Below are positions 5,914 to 48,839 of a stretch of 64,000 bases of DNA, piece after piece; position 1 is the stretch's first letter; each line of letters opens with the position of its first letter. A program made the position numbers and the translations under genes. The stretch lies in the IMG/VR virus record IMGVR_UViG_3300007735_000802. The stretch is one strand, 5' to 3'. Under the pieces are notes generated by a model that searched no databases, was not told the origin of the DNA, and saw nothing but the letters and a program-made list of their open reading frames with translations. The stretch comes from a virus.

Positions 5914-5942
5914 ATTATACCATAAATCGGGGTGCTTGTCAA
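5914..5942 (-). promoter_or_regulatory. sigma70-type promoter, leaderless
   Basis: TTGACA-17-TATAAT with extended TG. Confidence 0.85.
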
Positions 5943-6681: not shown

Positions 6682-6689
6682 TGTGTTCC

Positions 6690-7082: not shown

Positions 7083-7320
7083 TGCGGGTCTTGCTCCTCA
7101 TTTCGTCAAGAGTGTCGCGGTAGTCCGCGCAGACATCACGAAAGCGGTTGATGAATGCGTGAAGTGCCACAGACATCTCTTCCTGATTCGACATCTGAAG
7201 AATGGAAACAGTTGCTTCCATCTCCTTGATGAGATCATCGTCACTCATCATGTCGTAGTAGTCGTACACGGTGTCGCGGGTGTCGTCATTCGGAATCATT
7301 GGGGTACAACTCACTTTCAA
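7075..7320 (-). CDS. acidic hypothetical protein
   Basis: Coupled ORF; start uncertain. Confidence 0.55.
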   Translation of the reverse strand: MKVSCTPMIPNDDTRDTVYDYYDMMSDDDLIKEMEATVSILQMSNQEEMSVALHAFINRFRDVCADYRDTLDEMRSKTRNV

Positions 7321-7522
7321 TCTGATGCATCAGAGTTTCGATGTGGTGAATCTGTTCCTCGAGCTGAGCGATTCGGTCTTCGGAGCTCGAGTAGTATCCA
7401 CCATTTGCAATCGCAAAGAGAGAATGAAGATTTCCACGAAGGAAACCATATGCGTATGCGTATTGAGCCTGGGAACTACGCGGAATGATGCGCGGAGGAG
7501 TGACGGAAGTCTCGGTTTGCAT
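7286..7522 (-). CDS. hypothetical early protein, leaderless
   Basis: ATG 7522 lies 6 nt after TATAAT. Confidence 0.65.
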   Translation of the reverse strand: MQTETSVTPPRIIPRSSQAQYAYAYGFLRGNLHSLFAIANGGYYSSSEDRIAQLEEQIHHIETLMHQIESELYPNDSE

Positions 7523-7528
7523 GGGCAT

Positions 7529-7557
7529 ATTATACCACAAACGACTGCGGTTGTCAA
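7529..7557 (-). promoter_or_regulatory. sigma70-type promoter, leaderless
   Basis: TTGACA-17-TATAAT with extended TG. Confidence 0.85.
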
Positions 7558-7559
7558 GA

Positions 7560-8012
7560 TCAATGCGAAGTGCGGTGTTCTGCATTGCAGCAGTCTGCTT
7601 CGATGCGCTTGTCGCAAGTGCGACAAACCGTAGCAGACTCTCCCTTGTTTGCTGATGCGATATCGCACGGGAGTTCAGCGTAGAAGAACTCATTGCCATT
7701 CTCAATCGCGTCACCGCAATCGTCGCACCAGTATTGTGTGGTCTTCACATCTTCCCAACCAACGAAAGAGAGTCCATCCCATCCCATCGACAGCGCAATA
7801 TCCTGCGGAGTCTGTTCGGGATGATCGACATACCCTTCGCGGTGATCAACAGCGACGAACTCGCAGTAGAGCATACGAGCATCATCACGCTCTGCGATCA
7901 GGTTCTCAATCAGATTGGCAGACTCAACGAGATTCTGAATCTGTTCGGGTTCAAAGTCTGCGTTGTTCGCTGCTGCAAAATCACGAAGGAAGTTTGCGAG
8001 ATTGTGGTTCAT
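7560..8012 (-). CDS. ERDxAR-family protein with C-terminal zinc finger
   Basis: AERDDARMLYC...MGWDGL; CDDC...CRTC. Confidence 0.7.
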   Translation of the reverse strand: MNHNLANFLRDFAAANNADFEPEQIQNLVESANLIENLIAERDDARMLYCEFVAVDHREGYVDHPEQTPQDIALSMGWDGLSFVGWEDVKTTQYWCDDCGDAIENGNEFFYAELPCDIASANKGESATVCRTCDKRIEADCCNAEHRTSH

Positions 8013-8200
8013 GCGTTCTCCTTGTTGTCCATTGCGCGAAGACGGCGAACGACCTCGGCAAGAGCGAGATAGTCGTATCGGTCAATCTCATATCCACCGA
8101 ATCCCTCTTCGTTGGAGATGTTCTCAATCCAGTTTGCGAGTTCGTCGTTGCACATATTGTGCGCGTCGATGCGAGTCAAATCGTATTCGTTCTTGGTCAT
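8009..8200 (-). CDS. hypothetical protein
   Basis: Coupled ORF. Confidence 0.6.
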   Translation of the reverse strand: MTKNEYDLTRIDAHNMCNDELANWIENISNEEGFGGYEIDRYDYLALAEVVRRLRAMDNKENA

Positions 8201-8439
8201 GCGTAACTCACTTTCGAGAAAGATTGCTTGATGGTTCGTCGTTCGATGAATGCTTCGCCATCAGCTCGAGCATTCCGTTCCTTCGTGATCTTCTTTCCGA
8301 TTCCGAATGGTTTGCAGATGGTGCGATTGTGCTTCACTACTGCCGCACCTTCGCGCTCTGCTTCCATGTCGAAACGATCAATCACTCGCTTGGGCATTGG
8401 TTCCTCCGATACCACAAGTCTTTGCTGCACAGAGTTCAC
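8197..8439 (-). CDS. hypothetical basic protein
   Basis: Coupled ORF. Confidence 0.5.
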   Translation of the reverse strand: MNSVQQRLVVSEEPMPKRVIDRFDMEAEREGAAVVKHNRTICKPFGIGKKITKERNARADGEAFIERRTIKQSFSKVSYA

Positions 8440-8698
8440 GGAGATTCAGAATCTCAATCGACTGCGCGACAATGACTCGGTGAGTCTCTGCGAGCTTTTG
8501 CGAAAGTTTGATGTTCTGAACACAAACATTGTCGTAGTTCTTCTTGACTTCACGGAGAGTTTCATCCGATTCACGGAGCTCATCACTCACCGAGTCGAGT
8601 GCTGCGAGTGCTGATGCAACATCATCAAATCCCTGCATATGGAGAAGATCCATGTCGTACTTGCGCTGATTGTTCTTTTCGTTCTTAGGCATTGTCAT
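8378..8698 (-). CDS. coiled-coil hypothetical protein
   Basis: Start MTMPKNEK after AGGAG. Confidence 0.55.
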   Translation of the reverse strand: MTMPKNEKNNQRKYDMDLLHMQGFDDVASALAALDSVSDELRESDETLREVKKNYDNVCVQNIKLSQKLAETHRVIVAQSIEILNLRELCAAKTCGIGGTNAQASD

Positions 8699-8942
8699 TC
8701 TCCTTCGGAAAGCAGTCCCATCCCATTTCGTTGGCAATCTCTTCAACAGACATTCGACCATTTCGCGCGAGGTGATACTCATTGCACAGAGTGCGCCTCG
8801 CCTCGTCGCGCTCTTCACGCAGTTGCTTGAGCATCTTTACTGCGTGATACTCGTAGGAACTCTGTTCGGGATTCGTGTATCCCATGACCTTGACCGCCAT
8901 TTCAAAGTAGCGAATGAGTCCGTCGATTGAGTAGTCGCTCAT
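8685..8942 (-). CDS. ERDxAR-family protein
   Basis: EERDEARRTLC...MGWDCF. Confidence 0.7.
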   Translation of the reverse strand: MSDYSIDGLIRYFEMAVKVMGYTNPEQSSYEYHAVKMLKQLREERDEARRTLCNEYHLARNGRMSVEEIANEMGWDCFPKENDNA

Positions 8943-8943
8943 A

Positions 8944-9417
8944 TCAGACCGCCTTTCGGGGGTAAGTGTTGTAGTAGTACGGAATCACGCGATAGAACTG
9001 CTGCGTCATGCCGCTGAAGTGACAAGTCCATTCATCCCATGGATTGTCACAATACATACTGCTATTGAGTGGATTCGCAATCACATCCTGCGGAGTCCAT
9101 CCCTGCGCCTTCGTCTTCTTCCAATCTGCGCGCGCAGTTTCAAGATCGGGGAAATGAGAACCCTTCGACCTGTACCAAATGCCCTCATTACCCAAGACCC
9201 AATCGTAGAAACGAATCTCATTGGGAACCCACGGATTCGGAGTGTAGACACGCGCGAACTGCATTCCGTACTCGTTCACGGGAGAAACGAGCGCGTAGGT
9301 ACGCGGAATGTCAAAGTCGTGGAAAGTGTGCATTGCGTGAGGATAATCTCCCGCAACAAACGGAGTATGGACAAACGCAGGACGGGTAGAACCGATCTTG
9401 ACCTTCATCGTCTTCAT
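8944..9417 (-). CDS. hypothetical early protein, leaderless
   Basis: ATG 9417 lies 6 nt after TATAAT. Confidence 0.7.
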   Translation of the reverse strand: MKTMKVKIGSTRPAFVHTPFVAGDYPHAMHTFHDFDIPRTYALVSPVNEYGMQFARVYTPNPWVPNEIRFYDWVLGNEGIWYRSKGSHFPDLETARADWKKTKAQGWTPQDVIANPLNSSMYCDNPWDEWTCHFSGMTQQFYRVIPYYYNTYPRKAV

Positions 9418-9423
9418 GGGTGT

Positions 9424-9452
9424 ATTATACCACAAATGGGTGCGAGTGTCAA
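9424..9452 (-). promoter_or_regulatory. sigma70-type promoter, leaderless
   Basis: TTGACA-17-TATAAT with extended TG. Confidence 0.85.
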
Positions 9453-9456
9453 GCGA

Positions 9457-10173
9457 TTAGTGCTTGTGGTAAGTCACGGTTGCGACATTGCGATCCCAAC
9501 ACGCGCGACAATCGCGGCATTCGTTCGACTGAGAAGGTGCGAGACACGCGAACGAACCACGCGAACGCGCATTCTCCATTGCGGAGTCATTCGATGCGAC
9601 TTCCGACGAATGCTCGAAGTCATTCGGTGCAGACGAGTCGAGCATTGCCGCAGAAACGCGAACGGTGAGATTCGCGGGAAACTCACCGAACATCTCGCGG
9701 TACTTGCGAACAATCGCATACTCGCGCGTAGGAAGCCAGTGCTTCACATTTGGAGTCATTTCGCAGACTTGCACGATGTTGATGAGATGAGAGAGCGACT
9801 GCAAATCGCCCGAATCGTGCCAACGGAAATACGAAACCTTCTTGCACTTCTTTCCGATGACATACGCCATCGCTGCGACCCAACGCGAATCGAAGAGCGC
9901 GTTGTACCTACGCTCCATTGCCTTCTTTGTATTGGGGTAGTTGTAACTACCCTTGCAAGCGTAGCACTTCTCGCAAGTCGAACCCTTCACCTTTCGCAGC
10001 TTGGAACCGACATTGCAACGCTTCGCGGAGATGCTGGTACTCCAGCCTGGCATCTTGGAAGGCTTCGAAAGACCACCGACGATATCTTCGGCTTCGGAAT
10101 GATCGAAACTCGTTTCGGGATTGTGAATCGGAATAGCGCGAGTAGGAGCCTGGACGAGACTGTAAGTAACCAT
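9457..10173 (-). CDS. Gp88-like Cys-rich (probable Fe-S) phage protein
   Basis: GGLSKPSKMPG, C...CEKCYA, YFRWHDSGD, HWLPTRE, CRDCRACW. Confidence 0.8.
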   Translation of the reverse strand: MVTYSLVQAPTRAIPIHNPETSFDHSEAEDIVGGLSKPSKMPGWSTSISAKRCNVGSKLRKVKGSTCEKCYACKGSYNYPNTKKAMERRYNALFDSRWVAAMAYVIGKKCKKVSYFRWHDSGDLQSLSHLINIVQVCEMTPNVKHWLPTREYAIVRKYREMFGEFPANLTVRVSAAMLDSSAPNDFEHSSEVASNDSAMENARSRGSFACLAPSQSNECRDCRACWDRNVATVTYHKH

Positions 10174-10179
10174 TCCGGT

Positions 10180-10245
10180 AAGCTACCATAAACTTTCCCG
10201 CGTGTCAAGCCCTAACTTCCCGGAATGTGGATAACTTGTGGGTGA
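10180..10245 (-). promoter_or_regulatory. leaderless promoter with upstream DnaA box
   Basis: TTGACA-17-TAGCTT, ATG 6 nt downstream; perfect DnaA box 10226-10234 and degenerate box 10237-10245. Confidence 0.7.
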
Positions 10246-10298
10246 ATCTTATGCAAGGTAGGACTGCATATTCATTCATGCATATTCACACACACCGC

Positions 10299-10335
10299 GT
10301 TGATAGTAGTTGATAGTACACAAATGTTGATAGTA
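10299..10335 (+). repeat. 3x GTTGATAGTA cluster at a GC/AT boundary
   Basis: Copies at 10299, 10309 and 10326; TGCATATTCA x2 just upstream. Confidence 0.85.
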
Positions 10336-10347
10336 CACCCCCTATCT

Positions 10348-10875
10348 TTATTTTTCTCCAATAGAATCATGTATATAATAATTTGGGAATCTAGCCTTTA
10401 GCTCTCTCATAATAGCATCAAGAGAACTATTTGAAAAATAGTTTCGATGATTTGTGTTCATGCTTATCACTCTTCGATCATGATCTATTCTTCCGTATAC
10501 ATGAGGATGTGATTTATATGCTCCATTATCCGTGGTATAATATGCGTCAGGAAATAAATCAGCGTGTGTTTGTTCCATGTTTTGTATTGGTCTTATCGCT
10601 ACCAAATTTTCATTATTTTTTATTTCTTTTTTGATTGATGGACCAGCAGCCCACAGATGTGGTAATTTACCTTGATCAGATACTCCCCACACATCTCTTT
10701 TTATTTTGGCAAGTTCTGCCATTTTATTATCGTCGATTGGACCTAAATAACTCTCATCATCGTGACCAACATTAAGATATGTAGAGTTTACTTGTGGAAT
10801 TCTACTTTCTCTTCTTCTTCGTTGCTCTTCGCGAAATCGTTCTACTGATTCAAGTAGTTGTTTAAATTTGATCAT
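10348..10875 (-). CDS. putative internal head protein
   Basis: MIKFKQLLESVE leader; TATAGATA late-type promoter 5 nt upstream. Confidence 0.65.
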   Translation of the reverse strand: MIKFKQLLESVERFREEQRRRRESRIPQVNSTYLNVGHDDESYLGPIDDNKMAELAKIKRDVWGVSDQGKLPHLWAAGPSIKKEIKNNENLVAIRPIQNMEQTHADLFPDAYYTTDNGAYKSHPHVYGRIDHDRRVISMNTNHRNYFSNSSLDAIMRELKARFPNYYIHDSIGEK

Positions 10876-10892
10876 AATAGTATCTATAAATG

Positions 10893-10916
10893 AAAACCCC
10901 CCTTGCGGGGGGTTTT
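10893..10916. terminator. intrinsic terminator (symmetric)
   Basis: AAAACCCCCC-TTGC-GGGGGGTTTT. Confidence 0.8.
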
Positions 10917-10918
10917 GT

Positions 10919-12343
10919 TTAGGTAGCGACATACGGTGCTAGTGCAGGAGAATCTGGTGGTTCTTCTCCGGTTTCATTGTAATATAACCCACCACCAACA
11001 CCAAGTCCAAATCCAATTCCTTGATTTTCTATATTTGGCGCGATGTGTGCTGGTGCATTTGGATCACGATAGTGATCGAATGCTCTTCTGGAGACTAATC
11101 CGTTACCTCTCCAATCAAATGATCTAGAATCTCCAAGTTTTCTATAAACAAATTGACCAGTTGCTTCATCATATGCCCAGAAATGCCAGAATCCATTCGT
11201 GTCTTGATAATAAATTCCATCTTCTCGAACTTGTAACCAAGTATCTTGAGTTTGTTTCAATAAATCGGAAGTACCAACTAACGGTTTTGGAAGATCTGGT
11301 CTTGGTCTTGGTATGCTTAATTTATTAATTTTCATCCATCTATACAATAACTCTTTTGCTTGATCCTCTGTTAAATCCTCCCATACCAGTCTTCTTCCAA
11401 AAATAGATCCAATTCCACCCGGACCTCTTCCGGGTGGCCTGACTGGAGTATTACCACCACCATGTGGTGGTGCAGCTTCTAATATCGTTACTTCTTTCAA
11501 TTGTTCAAATAATCTATGTTTATAGTAATTTTTGATATTTTCATTTATGTTTTGCATATAGCTACTTTCGAATAATCTGTTTGGATCTGGAGGTCTAAGT
11601 CTTGTTGGATCTAAGCTAGGAGGAGTAAATACGGGGGGCATGTTTGGATTTTCAACTTGTCCAGGCCTATTTCTCACATGTAATGGACTTCTTTCCCATT
11701 GACCACTGTTTGGATTCCATTGATACCAATCATGTGGTTGTCCTCTTTCAAATGCTGGATTTGGTCTGTATTGCCATTCATTTGGGTTATATCCTTCTTC
11801 GCTTGGGTCATTTGGATTCCACCATCCGGGAGGTGGACCTTGAATTGGCGGTCCACCTCCCGGTGGGAAATAACCGGGATGTGTGTACCAAAGAGGTGGT
11901 GGATCATTGGGATTCGCATACCATGGATCAAGAGTAATTGGTCCGGCCGGACCTTCTGGTGCGGTATCTGTGCCACCAAAAACATCGACTTCATCTGGTA
12001 TTACCCAATATGGAAGTTGCCCTGGTGTTATTAAAATTGGGGGATATGGAGCTTTAGGATCTGGTGAAATATGATCAGGATGGTCCGCAGGAAGTCTATA
12101 TCTTCTTAACAAATCTCTAAGTTGTCTTCTCACTTCATCCTTCTGCTTATCTAAACGAGGAGGATTCATCCATCTATCATTCCCATATATGCTAGGATCG
12201 AAAGGGGGTTTTGGAGGAGCAGTACCGGAACTTGATGGTGGTGCATATCCAGGAACATTTGGATTTTGCGTTGGTGGAATTACAGGATCTGATTGCACAG
12301 TATCTTCTGTTATAGATTTGATGAATTTATTAAAACTTTTCAT
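10919..12343 (-). CDS. Pro-rich putative internal head (poly)protein
   Basis: MKSFNKFIKSITE leader; internal RLFES/RLFEQ/ILEA sites; TATACATA upstream. Confidence 0.65.
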   Translation of the reverse strand: MKSFNKFIKSITEDTVQSDPVIPPTQNPNVPGYAPPSSSGTAPPKPPFDPSIYGNDRWMNPPRLDKQKDEVRRQLRDLLRRYRLPADHPDHISPDPKAPYPPILITPGQLPYWVIPDEVDVFGGTDTAPEGPAGPITLDPWYANPNDPPPLWYTHPGYFPPGGGPPIQGPPPGWWNPNDPSEEGYNPNEWQYRPNPAFERGQPHDWYQWNPNSGQWERSPLHVRNRPGQVENPNMPPVFTPPSLDPTRLRPPDPNRLFESSYMQNINENIKNYYKHRLFEQLKEVTILEAAPPHGGGNTPVRPPGRGPGGIGSIFGRRLVWEDLTEDQAKELLYRWMKINKLSIPRPRPDLPKPLVGTSDLLKQTQDTWLQVREDGIYYQDTNGFWHFWAYDEATGQFVYRKLGDSRSFDWRGNGLVSRRAFDHYRDPNAPAHIAPNIENQGIGFGLGVGGGLYYNETGEEPPDSPALAPYVAT

Positions 12344-12370
12344 ACTATAATATGTATATATACAATTATC

Positions 12371-12967
12371 ATGAAAAAATTCAAACAACTATTAGAGTTT
12401 ATAGACAAAAACCGAGGAAGAAGAGATCGTGGAGATCCCGGAAGAGAAATTCGCGAATTTATGATGAAAATTCCATTCTCTGTAAAATTGTATTCTGATC
12501 GATCAAAAGAAACCCCACATGATCTACATTTTAAGGATATGTATGATGCTTCAAAATTAGTATCTTTTAACTTAGCAAAACACGAAGATGCTTTTAAAGA
12601 TAGCTATAACACAAAAAACAACAAAATGGTTGATTATTTCATGAACTCTACACAAACACATGAGAGTTTACTTGACAGAATGATGGTAGATTTAATGTTG
12701 CATCCAAAACTACCATCGCGATTAAAAAAGCATGTACCAGCAGTAATAGATGAAATTCAAAAAGAGGGTGAACAGGGACTAAGAACAACTAAATTACTTG
12801 GTGGAGATAACACTCAATATACAATAGAAATGCACAAATCAACAGATCCTTCATCAGATATTCATTCTCATCTTGAAGATGAATCACATCATTTACAGGG
12901 TGTGATTCGAAGAGTAAAAGAAGACCCGGATCGTGGATATTTTGTAAGACATGAAGAAATAGAATAA
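12371..12967 (+). CDS. putative internal head protein
   Basis: MKKFKQLLEF leader; TATATATA upstream. Confidence 0.65.
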   Translation: MKKFKQLLEFIDKNRGRRDRGDPGREIREFMMKIPFSVKLYSDRSKETPHDLHFKDMYDASKLVSFNLAKHEDAFKDSYNTKNNKMVDYFMNSTQTHESLLDRMMVDLMLHPKLPSRLKKHVPAVIDEIQKEGEQGLRTTKLLGGDNTQYTIEMHKSTDPSSDIHSHLEDESHHLQGVIRRVKEDPDRGYFVRHEEIE

Positions 12968-12970
12968 AAC

Positions 12971-12995
12971 AAAACCCCCCTTTCGGGGGGTTTTT
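12971..12995. terminator. bidirectional terminator between convergent genes
   Basis: AAAACCCCCC-TTTC-GGGGGGTTTTT. Confidence 0.85.
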
Positions 12996-13021
12996 GCGTT
13001 TGACTGGGTTGTCTGTTTAGG

Positions 13022-13231
13022 TCACGGGACGAAGACGATTCCACCCGTGCGACCACGCTTGAACTGAACACGCGAACCGTAGAAATCTACAATCATCTTC
13101 TTGACAATTGGGGACTTCATCTTGAACTCCTTGGCAAGATGCTTGACGGTGATTCGCTCGCCATTGGCAACGCGATTGGTGAGAGTAGCGGGATCAAAAC
13201 CATTCTGAGTCGTGAGAGTAGTTGCGGTCAT
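13022..13231 (-). CDS. small winged-helix DNA-binding protein
   Basis: ITVKHLAKEF helix and KRGRTGGI wing; AAGGA RBS. Confidence 0.6.
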   Translation of the reverse strand: MTATTLTTQNGFDPATLTNRVANGERITVKHLAKEFKMKSPIVKKMIVDFYGSRVQFKRGRTGGIVFVP

Positions 13232-13332
13232 ATGTAAATCCTTATGTTTGTTGGTAAAAAGTTGTTAGGGGTTTGTTGTTAAGAACGATTGTTTTTGTGC
13301 GTATGTCGTAACGAAAGTCGAGTGGAATCAGA

Positions 13333-14505
13333 TCAAAAAGGAACATCAGGATCGGATGCAGCAACCTCCTTGTTGTCATTGGTGCTCATCTGTTCCACAG
13401 TCGTCTCCGCATCAATCTTGTTGTAGAGACTGACGAACGCGGTCTGCGTATCCTTGTCGAAGCGCGTGAGAGCGAGAGTGATTGCCTTTCGCTTGTTGCC
13501 GAACATCGCATACGCCTTGCAGATGTTGATGGCACGACGAGTCGAGATGATCTCGTCAACACCACCTTCCGCAAAGGTCTTGCGAATGATCTCAGTCCAC
13601 TTGACGAGACAATCAGCGAAATTCTCGTCAATCTTGCCGAACTTCTTCATCGCCTTGAGAAGAATCTTCTTCTCAGTCGCGCGAGGAGCGTAGTCCTGCT
13701 CGAAAGTGTAGTCGTAGCGGTCAAGTGCCGCCTCGTTCATCACGCGAGTGCCGACGAAGCGACCATCATCCGAACCCTTGCCCTTGGTATTTGCAGTCGC
13801 AGCAACATTGAATCCATTGGCAGGAGAAACGAACTGACCAATCTTCTTGAGGAAGACACCCTTACCCTCAAGAACAGGTTGCAGGCACATGCACTTCTCC
13901 GTGCCAAGATCGATCTCGTCAAGAAGAAGAATCGCACCACGCTTCATTGCGAGAATGACCGGACCATCCTGCCATTCCATGTTGCCGTTGACGAGTCGCC
14001 ACGAACCGAGAAGTTCATCCTCATCTGTATCAGCAGTGATGTTGACACGGAAGCATTCGCGCTTCAACTTGGCACAGATCTGTTCGATCATCGTAGTCTT
14101 GCCGTTACCCGACAGACCAGTGACAAAGATCGGAGCAAAGATGTTGCTCTTGATGATCGTTGTGATATCCTCACAGTGGCCCCAAGGAACATACTCAGGG
14201 TTGACATCAGGAATGATCGAAGTACGCTCGCCCTGCGTCGATGCAGCGAGTGCGTAACACACGGAATTGGAAACGACGGGAGTTGTCATAGTCATGGTTG
14301 GATTTGACTTTGCGAGTTTAGTGTCGATGTAGAAATACCCACGACCCGCGCTGCGAGTCTTGTCTTGGACAAACCACGCAGGAGGGTACTTGAGTCCGAT
14401 GCTGTTCGCCGCTTCGACACATTGAGCGCGAGAAACAGTGTTCGATCCGTTTGCGATAGACTTGATTGCGTTGATGAATGCTGACTTGTTTGCGATCTTA
14501 GGCAT
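13333..14505 (-). CDS. MoxR/CobS-like AAA+ ATPase
   Basis: Walker A GLSGNGKT, Walker B LLLDEID, ATANTKGKG, NEAALDRY, ISTRR. Confidence 0.9.
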   Translation of the reverse strand: MPKIANKSAFINAIKSIANGSNTVSRAQCVEAANSIGLKYPPAWFVQDKTRSAGRGYFYIDTKLAKSNPTMTMTTPVVSNSVCYALAASTQGERTSIIPDVNPEYVPWGHCEDITTIIKSNIFAPIFVTGLSGNGKTTMIEQICAKLKRECFRVNITADTDEDELLGSWRLVNGNMEWQDGPVILAMKRGAILLLDEIDLGTEKCMCLQPVLEGKGVFLKKIGQFVSPANGFNVAATANTKGKGSDDGRFVGTRVMNEAALDRYDYTFEQDYAPRATEKKILLKAMKKFGKIDENFADCLVKWTEIIRKTFAEGGVDEIISTRRAINICKAYAMFGNKRKAITLALTRFDKDTQTAFVSLYNKIDAETTVEQMSTNDNKEVAASDPDVPF

Positions 14506-14512
14506 AGTGCGT

Positions 14513-14650
14513 ATATTATACCAAAATATAAGTTCCTGTCAATACCTTTTGTGTCATTTTTTGAACTTATCGGACGGGTTGATAGTATTATTATCGGACT
14601 CAAAATATGGGATGTTTCGTATTGACTCAAAGAATAAATTATGGTATAAT
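14513..14650. promoter_or_regulatory. divergent sigma70 promoters flanking TTATCGGAC-GTTGATAGTA-TTATCGGAC
   Basis: Minus: TTGACA 14542-14537, TATAAT 14520-14515. Plus: TTGACT 14622, TATAAT 14645. Motif 14578-14587. Confidence 0.8.
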
Positions 14651-14656
14651 AACGGT

Positions 14657-16966
14657 ATGTCTACCTCTAAGCAAAACAGCAAGTCGATTCTCGCTCGCGC
14701 ACTCGCCACAGAAAATATTCGTGTTGAACACAGTCCCAATACTTCGACTGCAATGTTCGATGTCGCAAATCGCGTTCTTGTTCTTCCCGTGTGGAAAGAT
14801 ATGAGTGACGAAGTGTACGACATGTTCGTCGGTCACGAAGTTGGTCACGCTCTATTCACTCCTGATATCGACAAGATGTTGAACAAGGTCACTAGTGGTC
14901 CTTGGTGTTCGGAAGCAGAGCGGATCGGTGGAACTGCACATGCTTCGTATGTGCAGGGACTGATGAACATCGTCGAGGATGTTCGCATTGAGAAGATGAT
15001 CAAGGATAAGTATCCGGGTCTTCGTCGCGACTTCTATGTCGGTTACAATGATCTCGAAAAGCGAGACTTCTTTGGTACGAAGGGAAAGAATCTCAATGAG
15101 TTTTCTTTCGCTGATCGTATCAATCTTCATTTCAAGTGTGGTGTATCTCTTGATGTTCCTTTCACCGATGAAGAGATGAAGTATGTCAATCTCATTGACT
15201 CTTGCAAGACCTTTGATGATGTCGTTCGTGCATCGGAAGAGGTCTATCGCTATCTTCGTGGTCAGAAGGAAGACAACAAGAATTCGGTGCAGACGAATGC
15301 AAATCCTGCTGCCATGAATTCTTCGACTGGAGAAAATGGAAATGGTTCTTCTTCTCAGATGGTTACTGAAACTGTCTCGAACGAGAAGAGCGAAGATCCC
15401 AATGGCACTCCGATGCAATCGAATGGTGACAAGAAGCAGGAGAACAACTCCTCTTCGAAGTCGAACAATGGTGCAGGAACTGGTCTTGCTTCTGAACTTG
15501 ACATTCAGACTCAGAAGAAGTTCAACGAGAATCAGAAGAGCATGGTTGACACCAATGTCTCTAGTGTGAACTATTGTTCGTTCCGTCTTACGGATCATTC
15601 TCGCGTGATTCTCCCGTACAAGAAGGTCATTTCCACTCTTGAGAACTACTACAACCCTGCACGAGCCAACAACAGGCAATACTCTGAGGTCTTCTCTGCA
15701 ATTGATGAGAAGTTTGCAAAGTTCACGCAGACGATGAAGCCTCTCATCAATACTCTCATCAAGCAGTTTGAGATGCGTAAGGCAGCGGATGTTCAGAAGC
15801 GTACTTCTGTTTCTCGCAGTGGCAAGATCGACGCAGACAAGATCTACAAGTATCGCGTGAGCGATGATATCTTCCTTCGCTTCTCGCGAGTTGCCGATGG
15901 AAAGAATCACGGTCTTGTGATGTTCATCGACTGGTCTTCTTCGATGCAACCCGCAACCGAAGATGTTCTTGTTCAGGTTCTGATTCTGTCGAACTTCTGT
16001 CGTCGCATGTCGATTCCGTTTGATGTCTACATGTTTACGAGTCAGTACACCGTTCTTCGCGATCATCTTGGTTTTAGTACGAACGAAGACATGTGGAATG
16101 CTGATCTTAGGCAGTGGGTTGGAACGACTGACAATCATCACCACAGCAAGTGGAACGGAATGATGAAGACTCACAACGATCACCGCGAAACATTTGCTCT
16201 GATTCAGATTCTTTCTTCCAACATGTCAATGAAGGAATTTGCAAGTGCTTCCAAGAATCTGTATACGATTGGTCAGATGATCACTCGTCCGGATGATGTC
16301 TTCAAGCAGAAGTATGTTCCGGGTCTTGTTCCTGATGGTTATCGTCAGGGAAATACTCCACTTGATTCCACGATTGTCGCAGCAATGACGATTGTTCCTG
16401 AGTTTCGTGAGAAGCACAAGTTGCAAGTCGTGAATACGATCTTCCTCACGGATGGTGATACTGGCGGAAGTCCGCTTTATCATGCAAACATGAACAGTTA
16501 CAACGCGAAGACTTATATTCGTTGTCCAATCACGAAGAAGGAGTTCTGCTTCAAGGATTCGGATACTACGAATGCTCTTCTTGAAATCTTCAAGCACAAT
16601 ACTCAGAGCACGACGATTGGATTCTTCGTGTGCTGTGGATCGTACTGCAAGTATTTCGAGGATTCAAAGCGAGATCGCAAGATTCTTCGTGACAATGGTT
16701 TCTACGAAGCACCGAAGGAGCGAAGCATTCTCGACTACACTGGAAATGTGAAGGCGAAGATCGTGAATCACGGATACGACAAGTTGTTTGTTCTTCCGTC
16801 TGAAATTGAGATTGATGACGAGTTTTCTGATCTCAACAATGTCGATACATCTGCAAGTCTCATCAAGATTCGCAATGCGTTCATGAACTCGCTCGACAAG
16901 CGCAGTGCGAGTCGTCTCTTCTTGAATCGGTTCGCAGATGTGATTGCGAATCCAAATACGAAGTAA
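14657..16966 (+). CDS. HExxH peptidase-like plus vWA-domain protein (MoxR partner, CobT-like)
   Basis: HEVGH, NIVEDVRIE, MIDAS DWSSSM...TPL...FLTDG; leaderless ATG 14657. Confidence 0.85.
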   Translation: MSTSKQNSKSILARALATENIRVEHSPNTSTAMFDVANRVLVLPVWKDMSDEVYDMFVGHEVGHALFTPDIDKMLNKVTSGPWCSEAERIGGTAHASYVQGLMNIVEDVRIEKMIKDKYPGLRRDFYVGYNDLEKRDFFGTKGKNLNEFSFADRINLHFKCGVSLDVPFTDEEMKYVNLIDSCKTFDDVVRASEEVYRYLRGQKEDNKNSVQTNANPAAMNSSTGENGNGSSSQMVTETVSNEKSEDPNGTPMQSNGDKKQENNSSSKSNNGAGTGLASELDIQTQKKFNENQKSMVDTNVSSVNYCSFRLTDHSRVILPYKKVISTLENYYNPARANNRQYSEVFSAIDEKFAKFTQTMKPLINTLIKQFEMRKAADVQKRTSVSRSGKIDADKIYKYRVSDDIFLRFSRVADGKNHGLVMFIDWSSSMQPATEDVLVQVLILSNFCRRMSIPFDVYMFTSQYTVLRDHLGFSTNEDMWNADLRQWVGTTDNHHHSKWNGMMKTHNDHRETFALIQILSSNMSMKEFASASKNLYTIGQMITRPDDVFKQKYVPGLVPDGYRQGNTPLDSTIVAAMTIVPEFREKHKLQVVNTIFLTDGDTGGSPLYHANMNSYNAKTYIRCPITKKEFCFKDSDTTNALLEIFKHNTQSTTIGFFVCCGSYCKYFEDSKRDRKILRDNGFYEAPKERSILDYTGNVKAKIVNHGYDKLFVLPSEIEIDDEFSDLNNVDTSASLIKIRNAFMNSLDKRSASRLFLNRFADVIANPNTK

Positions 16967-16989
16967 TCAAAAAATTAATAAATGAAATT

Positions 16990-17035
16990 GGAGATGAGTA
17001 ACCCTCATCTCCTTTTTTATTTTTTGTTGATAGTA
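16990..17035 (+). terminator. intrinsic terminator followed by GTTGATAGTA
   Basis: GGAGATGAG/CTCATCTCC plus T-run; motif at 17026-17035. Confidence 0.8.
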
Positions 17036-42490: not shown

Positions 42491-43606
42491 TTACCCAAAT
42501 AGGGATTCTAATGTATTTTTCTTTTCAGTTGACCATCCTATAGTATCTAGGATTGTAGTCAATGGATCTATAAAAGATTTTTCAAATTGCATTTTGTAAT
42601 CAATAAATTCATGCAATCCAAATTCTTTTGGTAAAATATTTGGAAAAGAAATAATTTGATCTTCACCACGAATACCACCAAGTGGATTTGGTTTCTTCAA
42701 ATGAAGATACTTGATCTTATCTCCTTCAATTATTTTTTTGTACTTTTTATTAATTTTATATTTTTCGATATAGTGGTTGTAAATCAAAGAACCTTTTACA
42801 GCAATTGGTGTCGATTTCTTATAGATTGTAGCACGATCAGCATACTTATCCATACCATTTACACTACGAGGAAATGCAATTTCCTCTGGACTTAAGGAAA
42901 AGAATTGCTTTTTACATTTTTCAACAAAAGTAACCATATCACTCTCATTGCCATTCATTGTAATATGAATTGCATCTTTGAGATATTTTCTAACACATTC
43001 TGGTGTTGAACTACGAGTAGTTTCAATTCCCATAATCTTAAGTTTTGGTTCTACATATCGAACACCTTCAGAGTCCCATACATTAAGCATGTATCTTTTC
43101 TTTGCAGTCCAAATTCCCTTGTCTGCAATAACTTCTCGACCCATCTGCATCTTATTCTCATAAGCATTCATGATGGAGGCAAGTTCTTTAAACTTTTTGT
43201 CGATGAACGGCAAGATTGCGTCGATTGAAGATTTATCGATAAAATTTACAATCTTGGTTTTATCAGTCGTATTTGGCATTACTTTTTGTACAAGTGGTCC
43301 AAGATTCAAATAAACAGAGTCAGTATCAGATGCGATCACATAATCAATATCTTTAGTTCCGACAATCTTGTTTAAATAATTATTTAGTTCTTGACCAATC
43401 CATTGAATAGACAACTGACCCGACAGAGTGATTGCCTCTGCGAGTTCAGTTGAATAATATCTAAAATATTCGTTTCCAATTGCCCCGTAAGCAGAATTCA
43501 ATTGAATTTTTCTTACTAACTGGAAATTATGGTATTTGGAAATTTCTAATTCATATTGTTTACGGAGAGATAGCAATTCTTCCGTAGATAACTTTGAATA
43601 ATTCAT
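42491..43606 (-). CDS. gp43: family B DNA polymerase, C-terminal half (gp43B)
   Basis: [20 protein letters not shown]; own promoter TTGACT-16-TACAAT 7 nt upstream. Confidence 0.92.
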
Positions 43607-43626
43607 AAGTCACATTGTATCAAAAA

Positions 43627-43986
43627 TTAATGAAGAGTCAAGAGATACTTTGTTGTATTGATGATTGCTAGCATCTCATCACGAATATTTAAAAGATCAG
43701 AGTCTTTATCTTCAGACAAACTCTGTGGTAATTCATTGAGCAAAAAGTTTTCAAAATACTTCAAAACGGGCATTGGATGTGCAGCTTCATATCCGAGTAA
43801 CTCAATTGTTCTATTTTGTTCAGTATCCTTACCATACTTGCCCATGTAAGTTTCAACAAAAGAGTCAATTAGTGGATCTAGTGCTTCGTATGCTTTTCCA
43901 AGTGCTTTATGTTCAGCAAAGGAAGGTGTTTGCCAGTGATGAATTCTTAATTGATTTTGAAGGGTTAAAAACTTTTCGATATGCAT
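43627..43986 (-). CDS. ferritin/Dps-like four-helix-bundle protein
   Basis: HHWQT..FAEHKALG..Y...D.FVE; NIRDEM. Confidence 0.75.
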   Translation of the reverse strand: MHIEKFLTLQNQLRIHHWQTPSFAEHKALGKAYEALDPLIDSFVETYMGKYGKDTEQNRTIELLGYEAAHPMPVLKYFENFLLNELPQSLSEDKDSDLLNIRDEMLAIINTTKYLLTLH

Positions 43987-44002
43987 ATTATTCTCCTATA
44001 CT

Positions 44003-44257
44003 TTATATAGAAGACTTCCAAACACCATCTAGAATGACTCCATAATCTGGAACATCATCTGGAGATACCTTTTCTACGCTGTAACATTGACTAATTTTCA
44101 TCGCAGTCCTGAGTCTATTTAATATTTCACATTCAGTAACTGCATTTGATTTCTTCTTGAATACAAGAATACCCTTACGGGGTTCTCCCGAAGGGTCTTT
44201 AATATTATCAGAAACAAAGTTTTTGGTTCCAGTTACAATTCCGTACATTAAAACCAT
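44003..44257 (-). CDS. hypothetical protein
   Basis: Coupled ORF in the island. Confidence 0.55.
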   Translation of the reverse strand: MVLMYGIVTGTKNFVSDNIKDPSGEPRKGILVFKKKSNAVTECEILNRLRTAMKISQCYSVEKVSPDDVPDYGVILDGVWKSSI

Positions 44258-44523
44258 CCCTTTTTCTTCTCAGGACAATTGAAGACGATACAAGAAGGTC
44301 GAGTCCATTCGTAGCGCATTACCCCATAGTAGTCTAGAACCACTACACGACACACATACATTGGCATGACAATTGTTCCACTCTCCCATTGCTTTTTAAA
44401 GAGATCAGACAACTTACTGATTTCTTCCTCGTCATCGCCCGTGTATTCAGAGTCGATATGGATCAGGAACTTCAGGTTGCTCATTTCTTGTTTCTTTTGT
44501 GCTTCAGTCATACCACTATCCAT
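44248..44523 (-). CDS. hypothetical protein
   Basis: Coupled ORF; start uncertain. Confidence 0.55.
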   Translation of the reverse strand: MDSGMTEAQKKQEMSNLKFLIHIDSEYTGDDEEEISKLSDLFKKQWESGTIVMPMYVCRVVVLDYYGVMRYEWTRPSCIVFNCPEKKKGWF

Positions 44524-44804
44524 CCCTTCTCTTTGGTCAGGTACTTGAACAGTTCTCTTCCTACTGGGCGACTCATCGTTCTGAACTCACCTCTCCTCAA
44601 TGTGATCTGTGGAAACTTCATCACATATTCATCATCTCCGTATCCTGGGATGATTGTGACTCCAACCATATCGGTATCAACATCATCAGACCAACAGAAA
44701 TGGACTTCGTCAAGGGATGGGAGATGTCTCACAACACACGACTTTTCCCAATTCAATTCCAACGGAGATGTATCTGGAATGTATGGATCACCGTAGCGTT
44801 TCAT
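44508..44804 (-). CDS. hypothetical protein
   Basis: GGAGGAG RBS; ATGA overlap. Confidence 0.6.
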   Translation of the reverse strand: MKRYGDPYIPDTSPLELNWEKSCVVRHLPSLDEVHFCWSDDVDTDMVGVTIIPGYGDDEYVMKFPQITLRRGEFRTMSRPVGRELFKYLTKEKGWIVV

Positions 44805-45436
44805 CGTCTCCTCCGAACACCAATCATACCAGCAATCCCGATCAGCGCAAGTGCCGATGGTACAGGAACAACCGTGTAGTCGATGTTGTCTATGGCAAGG
44901 TGAGACGAATACGCCGTTCCAACTCCATACACCTTGATATCCGTGATGTTGTTCAGAGGACCAGGATATGCATTAGAGATGATGAGTTTCGTCCGATCTG
45001 CCTGATTGAGTTGGGCGGTATAGGTGAACACTCCCTCTCCGTATCGGTATCCTTCGATCACCATAGTCATGGAAGTCCACACCGCCGTGACCTCAAGGCT
45101 GTTCAGCCTCCATAATTCACCACCACGACTGATGCGATAGTTGTTGAATGCATAAGAACCCCACGGAGTGTAGATGGCACGATCTCCGATGATGCCTTCG
45201 TCATATCCACCCCAACCCGCTCCACCAACCATGTCATAATAGGACCATTGGTAGTTTCCTTGTGCATTGGAACTTGTAAAGTTGAATCCTTCGTATGATC
45301 CAATCGAATCGTGCATGAATCCAGTTGAATTGGTAAAGGAATCTGCGTTCGTCGGAGCAGGAAGGTTCTCAAAGGTGCAGAGCGCACCTTGTGCCGAAGT
45401 AGCGATCAGAGTCGTTGCGATTAGTGTCTTCATCAT
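44801..45436 (-). CDS. PEP-CTERM-type surface-sorted protein
   Basis: Signal peptide MMKTLIATTLIATSAQG; C-terminus VPVPSALALIGIAGMIGVRRRR. Confidence 0.85.
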   Translation of the reverse strand: MMKTLIATTLIATSAQGALCTFENLPAPTNADSFTNSTGFMHDSIGSYEGFNFTSSNAQGNYQWSYYDMVGGAGWGGYDEGIIGDRAIYTPWGSYAFNNYRISRGGELWRLNSLEVTAVWTSMTMVIEGYRYGEGVFTYTAQLNQADRTKLIISNAYPGPLNNITDIKVYGVGTAYSSHLAIDNIDYTVVPVPSALALIGIAGMIGVRRRR

Positions 45437-45447
45437 TGTGTGTTCCT

Positions 45448-45915
45448 TTATCCCAAGTCCTGTAGATTTTCGTAATGGGGTGGTGTTGCCTTGACGGGTT
45501 CTGAAACCACACCCCGCATCTTCAGTTCCCTCAATTGCCTGTTCTCTTCCCAAAGTCGCTCAATGCTTTTGTTATTTTCCTCTGAGCGTGCCTTTAGAAA
45601 TTTATCAAAGTCAGTTACCGATTGTGGAAACTTTGCCCACTTTCTTTCATCATTGAAATAGTTCCAACCACGGGAGATGGCATAGTCACCCGCAAGGAAT
45701 CCAGTCAAGTGGTGAAAGCCACAGACTTCCCACCTTGCTTCATCTCGTTCCTTCTCAAGTTCACGGCACTTCTGCACCAACAGGTTGTTCTGGTACTTTG
45801 CATTCTCCAGTTCCTCCGTCAGACGGTATCGCTCAGACATGGCAGGGTATGGCTTCCTGCCACGGAGTCTGTCTAGGTTGTCTCCTGCGAGTAGATCGGG
45901 GTCTTCTTCAGTCAT
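45448..45915 (-). CDS. ERDxAR-family coiled-coil protein
   Basis: KERDEARWEVC...RGWNYF. Confidence 0.65.
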   Translation of the reverse strand: MTEEDPDLLAGDNLDRLRGRKPYPAMSERYRLTEELENAKYQNNLLVQKCRELEKERDEARWEVCGFHHLTGFLAGDYAISRGWNYFNDERKWAKFPQSVTDFDKFLKARSEENNKSIERLWEENRQLRELKMRGVVSEPVKATPPHYENLQDLG

Positions 45916-46129
45916 TGTTGTCCTCCTTGAAGCAGTAAACCTTCAGTGTTTCAATCTCTTCATATATTCGGTCAAGTTTTTCATGAGTTTTATTCGGTGA
46001 AATGTTCCCATCACCAATATCGTGGCCAAGATCTATTATCTTTTCTTGGATTTTATCCAAGCAAATAAGAACATATTTTTTGGTGCCTTTTTTACTTTTT
46101 GTTTTCTTTTTAGTCTTGGGCACTGGCAT
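45908..46129 (-). CDS. hypothetical helical protein
   Basis: AGGAG RBS; resembles 5347-5592. Confidence 0.6.
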   Translation of the reverse strand: MPVPKTKKKTKSKKGTKKYVLICLDKIQEKIIDLGHDIGDGNISPNKTHEKLDRIYEEIETLKVYCFKEDNND

Positions 46130-46547
46130 TCTCCTTCAGATATTGCCACCCACGCTTCTTGTATTCCTCGTCTACATCTTCAAAACGACAGGCTTGATCG
46201 ATGATCGAAGACATTACTTCTCGCCGTGCTTCGTCGCGCTCCTTGATCAAGCGATCTATCTCACTGCATCGGTGATGACCATATTCACCCGCATATCCCG
46301 CATGGCATTGATTTGCAGCAAGTGCCGTATTCTCATCAAGGAGTCTACGGGCAATGTATACCATGTCCGCAAAGTCATCGCCGTAATTGGGATACTCATC
46401 GGTTCCCTCAACTCGCTTGTCCTCCGCTGCAAGTTCCTCTTCATGGAACTTGATCGTCTTCTCCATGTCTTGCAGAGACATGATGTGATCGGAGGGACCG
46501 CATGTGAGGTTTTTGAAGTAGTCTAGTGGATTTTCTTCGTTTGTCAT
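46110..46547 (-). CDS. ERDxAR-family protein
   Basis: KERDEARREV...RGWQYL; ATG 46547 lies just past the tRNA-Leu 3' end. Confidence 0.65.
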   Translation of the reverse strand: MTNEENPLDYFKNLTCGPSDHIMSLQDMEKTIKFHEEELAAEDKRVEGTDEYPNYGDDFADMVYIARRLLDENTALAANQCHAGYAGEYGHHRCSEIDRLIKERDEARREVMSSIIDQACRFEDVDEEYKKRGWQYLKENASAQD

Positions 46548-46549
46548 AA

Positions 46550-46631
46550 TACCAAAGGTGGGAATCGAACCCACATGCCGTTAGGCAATTGATTTTGAAT
46601 CAATCGTGTATGCCAATTTCACCACTTTGGT
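46550..46631 (-). tRNA. tRNA-Leu(CAA)
   Basis: ACCAAAG acceptor, ATTGA-TTCAAAA-TCAAT anticodon arm, long variable arm, GGTTCGATTCC; no encoded CCA. Confidence 0.9.
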
Positions 46632-46636
46632 ATGAA

Positions 46637-46721
46637 TGGGATTGGTGGGATTCGAACCCACAATGTTTCTTAAGTGAGGCATTTTAAGTGCCTTGCGTTT
46701 CGCCAGTTTCGCCACAATCCC
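46637..46721 (-). tRNA. tRNA-Leu(TAA)
   Basis: GGGATTG acceptor, AGGCA-CTTAAAA-TGCCT, long variable arm, GGTTCGAATCC. Confidence 0.9.
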
Positions 46722-46724
46722 GAA

Positions 46725-46795
46725 CTACCCCGCCTAGATTCGAACTAGGAAAAAGAGATCCAAAGTCTCCTGTGATACCGTTTCACCACGGGGTA
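46725..46795 (-). tRNA. tRNA-Gln(TTG)
   Basis: TACCCCG acceptor, GGAGA-CTTTGGA-TCTCT, CCTAG-TTCGAAT-CTAGG. Confidence 0.9.
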
Positions 46796-47335
46796 TTAAA
46801 ACACATTACTTGCGAGTGCGTACATTGCGATACCACTCGCGGTTCTTACATTCAGACTCCTGACAGTTCCATATTGCTTAATATACAATCTGTGGTCGCA
46901 GATGTCAAGAATCTCTGCTGGAAGACCGACTTGTTCTTGACCGAACGCTAGAACATAATGTGTATTTTTATTCCATTCAAACTCATTAATTGCCGAAGCA
47001 CCCGGTAGATTATCTATGCCAATGACGGATACATTTCCATAGGAACCTCGTAGGATCTTGATTTGATCTTCAAGTTCAGAAAAGGTTCTGGTATGTAGAA
47101 AGTTCGTATAATGATGTGTACCGACAGTGCCGCGACGATCATATTGTTTAGATCCGTAAAGAATTACCTGTTTAGCAAGGAACGCATTCGAATTGCGAAT
47201 GACTGTAGCGATATTGAAGTCATTATATAAATTGCTGCAAATAACGGTAAAATTATTCCGTTTTGTTTCAAGGTCAGCAATGATCGCTTCATGCGACCAG
47301 TAGTGGTAGTGGTCGATGATGTTCCTCGTTTCCAT
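46796..47335 (-). CDS. SPOUT (SpoU/TrmH/TrmL-family) RNA 2'-O-methyltransferase
   Basis: NIATVIRNSNAF, FGQEQVGLP, YIKQYGTVRSLNV.TASGIAMY; leaderless promoter TTGACA-16-TATAAT. Confidence 0.88.
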   Translation of the reverse strand: METRNIIDHYHYWSHEAIIADLETKRNNFTVICSNLYNDFNIATVIRNSNAFLAKQVILYGSKQYDRRGTVGTHHYTNFLHTRTFSELEDQIKILRGSYGNVSVIGIDNLPGASAINEFEWNKNTHYVLAFGQEQVGLPAEILDICDHRLYIKQYGTVRSLNVRTASGIAMYALASNVF

Positions 47336-47357
47336 GGTTGTATTATATCAGAATTAT

Positions 47358-48839
47358 TCACTTTGTCAACCCCCTACGCTTCAATTCTGCATCAACATCT
47401 TCTAAACTTTTCTTTGCTTCAATCATTTTATTCTTAAACTCTTTTCGATCTTTATACATCTTTTCCATAAGATCTGGCAAGAATCCACGAACATTCTTTT
47501 TATAGGTTGTTCCATTTGCAGCAACGGAAAGATCTTTTCTCTTATGCTGCTCTATAAACGAAAGCGAAACATTTCCTCCAGTAAGAATACCATCAGGAGA
47601 TACTGTTCCTCTTGCACCATCTGTAGTCAAAGTCTCTGGAGAGATATTGTACTGCATAATGAGATGAGGATACAGAGAATTCAAGTCAAATGAAGCAACC
47701 CAGTGATGCATTCCAACCAAAGGTTCCTTTACATATGCACCAGCATACTGCTCGTCTTTTCTTTCTTTCTTCTTTGGAGGAATTGCAATTCCTCTTGCTT
47801 TCAAATCATTGTATATAATAACATCCCATGTTCGTACTTGTGAAAACACATCTTGATAATTAACACCAGCAGAGTATGCAAGTGCTACTGCGAGTTCAAT
47901 CAGTCTTAGTTTCTTTTCAAGTTTCTGTACTAATTCAACATCTCGAATATTATATTCAATAAACTTTTGAAAATCCTTTTTATAGAAATCGGTGATGCTC
48001 TCATACTCTGAATATGAAAGTTTTCTTTCTCCAAGTTCCACCCACGAAATATGATTTAAACTGTAAGACTCTTGATTTACATATGTAAATGTTTTATAGA
48101 GTTCGTAATAATCAAGCATTGCTATTCCGATGATATCATATGCTTGTTCTTCTGAACCCTTCTTCGTAATGAACTTTTCTTTTATGATTCCCCACGGAGA
48201 AAGTTTACGAGATATTTTCTTTCCAAGTATTTTGTTAATTCGATTAATCAAATATGGAAAATCGAAGAATCTAATGTTCCATCCAGTCACGATGTCAGGG
48301 TATGATGTTGAAAAATATTCTACAAATTTATACAGAAGATTTTCTTCAGAATCAAATTCATATACATCGATATCTTCGGTTGTCTTAAACTTACCAAGAC
48401 AAAATGTTTTCTTTCCGGTTCTTGTCGATGTGCAAGATATTGCAATGACTTCTTCTTCTGGATTTTGGATGGATGGGAAACCATTTTCTGATGCTGTCTC
48501 AATATCAATATACATGATATCGATTTGTGAGAAGTCGTAGTTTGCATTCGTCCCATATCGTGAACTTATAAACTGATACTCTATAGAAATATCACCATGA
48601 ATTTTAAAATTTGGAATTGACGAATACTTCTCTAAAAATTCCTTATATTCGTCATAAGAATCAAACTTCATCTCTGTCAAAAAATCACCCGTAAGTGACT
48701 TAACGGGTGTTTGTTTATTTGAGGGAAGATATAGAGTGTGTTTAAAATTTTCTGTTATGTATTTTGTCGAACCATCCTTTTGCTTTTCTGCTAAAAGAAT
48801 GTTTCGATAGTCATAATAAACACTTGTATAAAACTTCAT
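47358..48839 (-). CDS. gp43: family B DNA polymerase, N-terminal half (gp43A: exonuclease plus motif A)
   Basis: DIET, TGWNIRFFD, YNIRDV, SFDLNSLYPH; ends in the fingers helix. Confidence 0.92.
   Translation of the reverse strand: MKFYTSVYYDYRNILLAEKQKDGSTKYITENFKHTLYLPSNKQTPVKSLTGDFLTEMKFDSYDEYKEFLEKYSSIPNFKIHGDISIEYQFISSRYGTNANYDFSQIDIMYIDIETASENGFPSIQNPEEEVIAISCTSTRTGKKTFCLGKFKTTEDIDVYEFDSEENLLYKFVEYFSTSYPDIVTGWNIRFFDFPYLINRINKILGKKISRKLSPWGIIKEKFITKKGSEEQAYDIIGIAMLDYYELYKTFTYVNQESYSLNHISWVELGERKLSYSEYESITDFYKKDFQKFIEYNIRDVELVQKLEKKLRLIELAVALAYSAGVNYQDVFSQVRTWDVIIYNDLKARGIAIPPKKKERKDEQYAGAYVKEPLVGMHHWVASFDLNSLYPHLIMQYNISPETLTTDGARGTVSPDGILTGGNVSLSFIEQHKRKDLSVAANGTTYKKNVRGFLPDLMEKMYKDRKEFKNKMIEAKKSLEDVDAELKRRGLTK

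Follow-up and report, generated by a model that had tools for sequence, protein, structure and literature searches.

Why would a phage place an RNA methylase gene directly against a row of tRNA genes? This question is raised by a 64,000-nucleotide (nt) stretch of viral DNA (IMG/VR record IMGVR_UViG_3300007735_000802, referred to as the window in its full length), in which a SPOUT methylase gene and three tRNA genes follow each other on the minus strand. The open reading frame (ORF) of the methylase (46796-47335, 179 amino acids) ends with a TAA stop codon at 46796-46798, and tRNA-Gln(UUG) (46725-46795, 71 nt) starts at the very next position, 46795. It is followed after 3 nt by tRNA-Leu(UAA) (46637-46721, 85 nt) and after another 5 nt by tRNA-Leu(CAA) (82 nt; 46550-46631 according to Rfam, 46549-46632 according to ARAGORN), both of class II, with its long variable arm. 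All three tRNAs score 58-59 bits in Rfam against a threshold of 29 bits. A preliminary description of this DNA had given the same order of promoter, methylase gene and tRNAs, with the stop codon adjoining tRNA-Gln, and this layout with its gaps of 0, 3 and 5 nt was found to be exact. On balance, and with modest confidence, we favour the view that the gene encodes a divergent TrmH-type 2′-O-methyltransferase, which is made together with the phage tRNAs and most likely acts at G18.

The methylase was compared with the known families of this fold by several approaches. Pfam assigned residues 29-172 to PF00588 SpoU_methylase (E 6e-24, 85 bits versus a cut-off of 29.7), and all three SPOUT motifs are present. 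Among the NCBIfam models, TrmH (46.5 bits) and RlmB (46 bits) ranked before TrmL (26.3 bits, covering residues 65-173 only) and TrmJ (22.9 bits); no family reached its curated cut-off, and the rank order holds across 24 family members. A search of PDB sequences with the family profile returned Gm18 enzymes in all four top positions, namely TrmH of Aquifex (53 bits), TrmH of Escherichia coli (48 bits), human TARBP1 (45 bits) and TrmH of Thermus (35 bits), with TrmL as a partial match of 28 bits. Using hhalign, a profile of 120 family members was aligned to E. coli proteins and scored 131.5 with TrmH (E 2e-21, TrmH residues 8-164, including the N-terminal helix), 97.6 with RlmB, 62.3 with TrmL and 47.2 with TrmJ. 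An AlphaFold (AF2) model of the methylase (pLDDT 81, pTM 0.80) gave 110 PDB matches at E<=0.001 in Foldseek; those listed were SPOUT enzymes throughout, with the TrmH structures 1zjr (Aquifex) and 1v2x (Thermus) as best matches, AviRb and RlmB high, and TrmL entries in 18th place and lower. In a maximum-likelihood tree, TrmL and TrmJ split off from all other sequences, including the methylase, with 98/98 support, a placement to be taken cautiously because the reference branches are long.

The catalytic centre could be followed residue by residue. N41, R47, E134, S160 and N162 of the methylase align with N35, R41, E124, S150 and N152 of Thermus TrmH, the mutation of which nearly abolishes activity (PMC5372735), and these five residues are 94-100% conserved among 119 family representatives. 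Fold, Pfam domain and catalytic residues thus all place the protein in the SPOUT/SpoU 2′-O-methyltransferase superfamily. With TrmH (Thermus 1V2X, Aquifex 1ZJR, E. coli 7EDC) it shares the knot fold, the N-terminal helix and the lack of an extra RNA-binding domain, and the Gln and Leu tRNAs that are its neighbours here are natural substrates of the E. coli enzyme. It differs from TrmH in its low identity (only ~20-25%), in being encoded by a phage and in being physically joined to tRNA genes. The family also has features of its own, an invariant N-terminal motif (RN-x-x-D-x-Y-x-Y-W) and a DRRG insert. Judged from its sequence, the methylase is TrmH-like (SpoU class) and not a TrmH orthologue.

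We further looked at the distribution and the neighbourhood of the gene. Relatives are encoded on 193 viral contigs, and a profile search yielded at least 155 clusters at 50% identity (E<1e-30). Pairwise ratios of nonsynonymous to synonymous substitution (dN/dS) of 0.08-0.24 reveal purifying selection. A tRNA gene lies within ~520 nt of the methylase in 74/80 fetched loci, the other six being cut on the relevant side. The identity of these tRNAs changes from clade to clade: copies that are at least 75% identical are accompanied by Gln-Leu-Leu, Gln-Leu, Gln alone (locus L016) or Leu(UAA) alone, and copies of ~67% identity by Asp-Asn. At ~63% identity, the gene is flanked by tRNA-Ile(UAU), 7 nt upstream, and tRNA-Glu(UUC), 14 nt downstream, within arrays that hold up to 18 tRNAs and have no DNA polymerase (PolB) gene nearby. 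Locus L050 combines the methylase with Asp, Asn, Thr, Gly and Tyr tRNAs and has no tRNA-Leu. Synteny with Leu tRNAs is therefore frequent, not conserved, and since the neighbouring tRNAs vary by clade, the link is to phage tRNA arrays generally and not to the two Leu tRNAs. Of the earlier proposal, the compact and evidently co-transcribed unit of methylase and tRNAs stands, and it is conserved in relatives; its pairing with the two Leu tRNAs is not.

In the window, the methylase and its tRNAs occupy a 3.75-kb gap within a split T4-type PolB gene (gp43), whose N-terminal half (47358..48839, minus strand) covers positions 7-496 of the 856 positions of phrog_262 and whose C-terminal half (42491..43606, minus strand) covers positions 498-852. 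A scan of relatives of the PolB C-terminal half showed a marked asymmetry. Twenty loci are unsplit, and all of them are devoid of tRNAs and methylase. In every split locus the gap holds one or more tRNAs, either together with the methylase (24 loci) or without it (6 loci), and no locus has a methylase without tRNAs in the PolB gap. A function related to tRNAs is suggested mainly by this asymmetry and by the fact that the linkage persists in two genomic contexts unrelated to each other, and the conserved unit, found in a large family of uncultured phages, argues for a functional tie between the methylase and the phage tRNAs. In addition, tRNA-Gln is found in most methylase-bearing loci and in 0/6 split loci without methylase, which is to be read as a hint and not as a statistic because the loci are related to one another.

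These data also bear on the identity of the enzyme first proposed for this locus, a TrmL-like 2′-O-methylase of the wobble nucleotide (U34/C34) serving the two adjacent Leu tRNAs. In its favour, tRNA-Leu(UAA) and tRNA-Leu(CAA) are exactly the substrates of E. coli TrmL (PMC4615657) and both phage tRNAs show the A36-A37-A38 context. TrmL (YibK/CspR) is likewise a small single-domain SPOUT protein of comparable size, a short segment of the methylase (YDRRG..GTHHY) resembles the RLRRAGLDYHEF stretch of TrmL, and one distant cluster was automatically annotated as TrmL by IMG. However, TrmL ranks third or fourth whichever method is used, its partial alignment of 26.3 bits compares with a cut-off of 190.6 bits for the TrmL equivalog TIGR00185, and it lies beyond the deepest split of the tree. 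The N-terminal helix that aligns to TrmH is missing from TrmL, and relatives carry the gene with tRNA-Gln as the only tRNA of the island, without any tRNA-Leu or between Ile and Glu tRNAs. Consequently, the TrmL assignment was dropped, with four separate comparisons (NCBIfam, PDB profile, hhalign and Foldseek) and the tree all placing TrmH ahead, and we consider wobble methylation of the Leu tRNAs highly improbable.

Which nucleotide might then be modified? The D-loop of tRNA-Gln(UUG) has 7 nt (AACGGTA), containing G18G19 and lacking nucleotide 17; the tRNA further shows U1-A72, G73 and G37. Its G37 follows G36, as in a TrmD-type m1G37 context, and its variable loop has 4 nt; tRNA-Gln of E. 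coli carries A37 at this position. Both Leu tRNAs have G18G19 and A73. In E. coli, Gm18 occurs in 14 tRNA species only, those of class II (Leu, Ser, Tyr) plus tRNA-Gln, and the determinant in tRNA-Gln is a shortened distance between A14 and G18 (PMC11640301). This short A14-G18 distance is also present in tRNA-Gln of the window. A cassette of tRNAs plus their modifier, acting at G18, remains plausible.

Several observations weigh against this assignment. The curated TrmH hidden Markov model (NF008295) requires 227 bits, far above the score of the phage protein. A basic C-terminal extension (R166, R168, R176) provides initial tRNA binding in Thermus TrmH; the phage protein lacks such a tail and ends ~7 residues past the last aligned helix position, none of them basic. 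The dinucleotide G18G19 is near-universal in tRNAs, so that its presence discriminates nothing, and as the enzyme is moreover distant from E. coli TrmH, the target position is something we infer. The adjacency to tRNA genes could stem from shared early expression rather than from an enzyme-substrate relation. Besides that, the closest cellular relatives are uncharacterised and located away from tRNA genes. These full-length chromosomal homologues (>580 loci, nearly all in Actinomycetota, 41-46% identity) have the N-terminal motif of the family and are placed in the tree as sister to the phage proteins, with 91/89 support. Those of Micromonospora, Glycomyces, Acidimicrobiia and Thermoleophilia also share the DRRG insert, but their function is not curated, and the genomic context of one Micromonospora homologue, with DUF6758 as the only neighbour, is uninformative. 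A literature search for Rv0380c, as a candidate for a characterised actinobacterial relative, yielded no usable result.

One alternative is an RlmB/AviRb-like 2′-O-methylase of rRNA or another RNA, acting on host ribosomes or on phage RNA, in which case the tRNA adjacency would reflect a shared early translation module. The near-equal NCBIfam scores of RlmB-type rRNA methylases and TrmH, the high Foldseek ranks of AviRb and RlmB and the location of the actinobacterial homologues would all fit. However, rRNA-modifying SpoU enzymes carry an L30e-like N-terminal domain (SpoU_sub_bind), whereas Pfam found PF00588 alone in the 179 residues; hhalign clearly favours TrmH, and the very tight linkage to tRNAs is kept across unrelated genomic contexts. 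Overall, we regard an rRNA or other non-tRNA substrate as clearly unlikely.

A further difficulty concerns the window copy itself, in which the preliminary description had already noticed an atypical knot motif. Motif 3 reads SLNVRTA instead of the family motif SLNVGTA, and the arginine at codon 164 (AGA, 46844..46846, minus strand) is a private substitution that results from a single G-to-A change of the GGA codon found in relatives. Glycine occupies this position in 77/77 phage relatives covering the site, including 99%-identical copies; 114/117 wider representatives have G, A or S, and the equivalent residues of E. coli TrmH, TrmL, TrmJ and RlmB are S, S, A and S. A small residue is thus expected after SLNV, which is what the family shows and the window copy does not. 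The methylase of the window may therefore have lost some or all of its function, unless the deviating base is simply an error. Such a crippled allele, in which G164R harms binding of S-adenosylmethionine or folding and the cassette delivers tRNAs only, or else a mistake in assembly, is a serious though rather unlikely explanation. On the other hand, the ORF is otherwise intact, with one further amino-acid difference from its nearest relative, and residue 164 follows the invariant SLNV and may be a helix N-cap that tolerates a surface arginine.

How would the unit be expressed? Upstream of the methylase gene, a sigma-70-type promoter (47369..47342, minus strand; TTGACA-16 nt-TATAAT with extended TG) matches the consensus at 12/12 positions. 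Its -35 hexamer lies within the last codons of the PolB N-terminal half, and 6 nt separate the end of its -10 hexamer from the methylase ATG. Promoter-like sites are not enriched in this region (18 found versus 20.8 expected); the promoter noted in the preliminary description is taken as real because it is conserved in relatives. Of 36 distinct upstream sequences of the clade residing in the PolB gap, 34 have a -35/-10 pair whose end is 4-7 nt away from the ATG, with diverging spacers between the two hexamers. Such a short distance implies a leaderless mRNA. TAnAAT -10 boxes 6-7 nt before the ATG also precede the PolB C-terminal half (43614-43641, a promoter of its own ending 7 nt before the ATG) and the dUTPase gene (upstream of 51028), and Shine-Dalgarno-like motifs were found for about half of the other genes in the window. 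Leaderless early genes thus seem to be a recurring design of this phage. In the clade of the large tRNA arrays, it is tRNA-Ile that precedes the methylase ATG by 7 nt.

Downstream of the start codon, a terminator scan revealed none between the methylase and the tRNAs, the only nearby matches being tRNA T-arms. A second promoter-like site (46908..46880, minus strand; TTGACA-17-TATATT, 11/12) is located inside the methylase ORF, ~85 nt upstream of tRNA-Gln. Its hexamers are retained in most relatives, a conservation that is confounded with that of the codons they overlap; the site may serve as a promoter for the tRNAs only. On the other side of the cassette, the ATG of an orphan ORF (46110..46547, minus strand) lies 2 nt past the 3′ end of tRNA-Leu(CAA), and its mRNA would be nearly leaderless after tRNA processing. 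The simplest reading of this arrangement is a tRNA-punctuated transcript, whose mRNAs would have essentially no untranslated regions (UTRs).

Taken together, our preferred TrmH-type reading could work as follows. The strong host-type promoter would start transcription at or beside the AUG, giving a leaderless mRNA, and a single unbroken transcript would run from the methylase through tRNA-Gln and tRNA-Leu(UAA) to tRNA-Leu(CAA). Were RNase P then to cut immediately in front of tRNA-Gln, the mRNA would be left with its stop codon as the exact 3′ end. The methylase, which like other SPOUT enzymes is presumably a knotted homodimer, would methylate the phage tRNAs, with G18 of the D-loop as the likely position. 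A more stable D-loop/T-loop core in these AT-rich tRNAs, or a maturation independent of the host, might be the benefit. The tRNAs in turn would supply codons that are frequent in the phage: UUA and UUG account for 47% of the Leu codons in phage ORFs and CAA for 80% of the Gln codons, which is consistent with ordinary codon supply by the three tRNAs.

Another possible benefit, also considered in the preliminary description, is counter-defence. A 2′-O-methyl group stops metal-independent RNases at the modified bond, and the methylation could thereby armour phage tRNAs against tRNA-cleaving nucleases of the host. Genes of distant family members have Thg1, RNA ligase or anti-Gabija genes in their vicinity, and in other members the methylase is joined to a Panacea antitoxin-type domain. 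Phage tRNAs are, moreover, already known to evade tRNA-targeting defences, but the nucleases concerned cut in the anticodon loop or arm (PMC10264068, PMC11555353). Because a Gm18-type enzyme modifies the D-loop, protection of the anticodon loop is not expected, and the hints from gene neighbourhoods, all of them in distant relatives, serve as leads only. We therefore regard this role as very unlikely. A related and similarly doubtful idea is that the methylase chemically marks the phage tRNAs made on the same transcript, setting them apart from host tRNAs, so that they might survive a tRNA-directed nuclease, be it a host defence or a shut-off factor of the phage.

The methylase family has few counterparts among described phages. 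A search of PHROGs with the methylase matched no family, the 50,697 deposited phage genomes gave only six weak matches (at most 37% identity), and a literature search for phage SpoU returned only false positives via 'Spounavirinae'. These matches are confined to the 'tRNA-methyltransferases' of two Rhodococcus phages, Trina and NiceHouse, and of an uncultured phage of 484 kb (LR756508). They resemble the methylase at 31-37% identity, with 96% of the length aligned, yet they are distant, lie outside tRNA arrays and are uncharacterised. Some wider SpoU members (P0148 at L088 5177-6142, P0165, P0192, P0202, P0217 and P0237) carry N-terminal fusions to SocA/Panacea antitoxin-type domains, DUF559/REase-like nucleases, HAD hydrolases, GNAT acetyltransferases or HTH domains.

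Variation was also observed in the tRNA part of the cassette. Locus L001, whose methylase is 99% identical, has a different tRNA cassette (5561-6532): an HNH-endonuclease-like ORF of 257 amino acids separates tRNA-Gln from the Leu tRNAs, and its Leu(UAA) and Leu(CAA) tRNAs have only 73 nt and no long variable arm, as in L024-L029. The junction between methylase and tRNAs looks like a recombination point. In the distant arrays with 18 tRNAs, ARAGORN predicted a tmRNA-like gene (tag ANELAMAA*) overlapping tRNA-Gly (L066 7074-7388, L069 8626-8939, L073 9965-10279), and unusual anticodons occur there, namely Ile(UAU) and Ser(ACU), with Asn(AUU) in L051.

The genome carrying the cassette is that of a T4-like myovirus, with a PolB ~47% identical to those of cyanomyoviruses, and the split site of this PolB is a tRNA insertion hotspot, documented by the window (42491-48839) and by L205, L192, L206, L215, L216 and L236. 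In the smallest form, which lacks the methylase, the halves are ~185 nt apart, with a lone tRNA-Leu(UAA) and a mini-ORF between them (gaps of 181-187 nt in L205, at 2700-2990, and L206). Larger gaps hold up to eight tRNAs plus cargo genes. The gap in the window also contains a DUF5856 gene and a GC-richer island (~45-48% versus 34% GC) of orphan ORFs, with tandem paralogues of a small orphan protein, two in the window (45448-45915, 46110-46547) and at least four in L001 (7589-9557). An ERDEAR-x-EV(C) stretch is common to these paralogues, as is a motif at the C-terminus, RGW(D/N/Q)(C/Y)(F/L), and searches of Pfam and PHROG gave no matches. ORF 44801-45553 has a PEP-CTERM-like C-terminus, a weak assignment under the cut-off (Pfam E 0.005), and homologues of 36-64% identity in the same island of L007, L019-L023 and L029. 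Elsewhere in the window, positions 1-17000 have ~50% GC and few long ORFs, the remainder having 34% GC, and at 468-539 ARAGORN reported an unusual tRNA-like gene, the anticodon of which has two bases.

The overall organization recalls the tRNA cluster of phage T4 and the 'tRNA punctuation' of mitochondria, in which tRNAs lie a few nucleotides apart in one transcript and tRNA processing sets the mRNA ends. It differs from both in the predicted mRNA, which would lack a UTR at either end, and from T4 in that T4 relies on host enzymes for tRNA modification, whereas here the modifier and the tRNAs share one transcript. The general assumption is that host enzymes modify the tRNAs of phages (PMC13191261). 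The locus also illustrates that an enzyme next to its textbook substrates, as TrmL next to Leu tRNAs, can mislead, since TrmH too has Gln and Leu substrates. The structure described here is real and conserved, and the cassette idea survives in modified form, as a tRNA methylase made together with the phage tRNAs and probably targeting G18. If the marking of phage tRNAs were true, it would amount to a modification-based self/non-self system operating on tRNA instead of DNA. Irrespective of this, a large uncultured phage lineage builds a tRNA-type methylase into its tRNA transcript, providing a concrete and easily tested case of a virus bringing tRNAs plus an enzyme that modifies the tRNA body, with three short tRNAs as candidate substrates and a natural Gly/Arg allele pair as a ready control.

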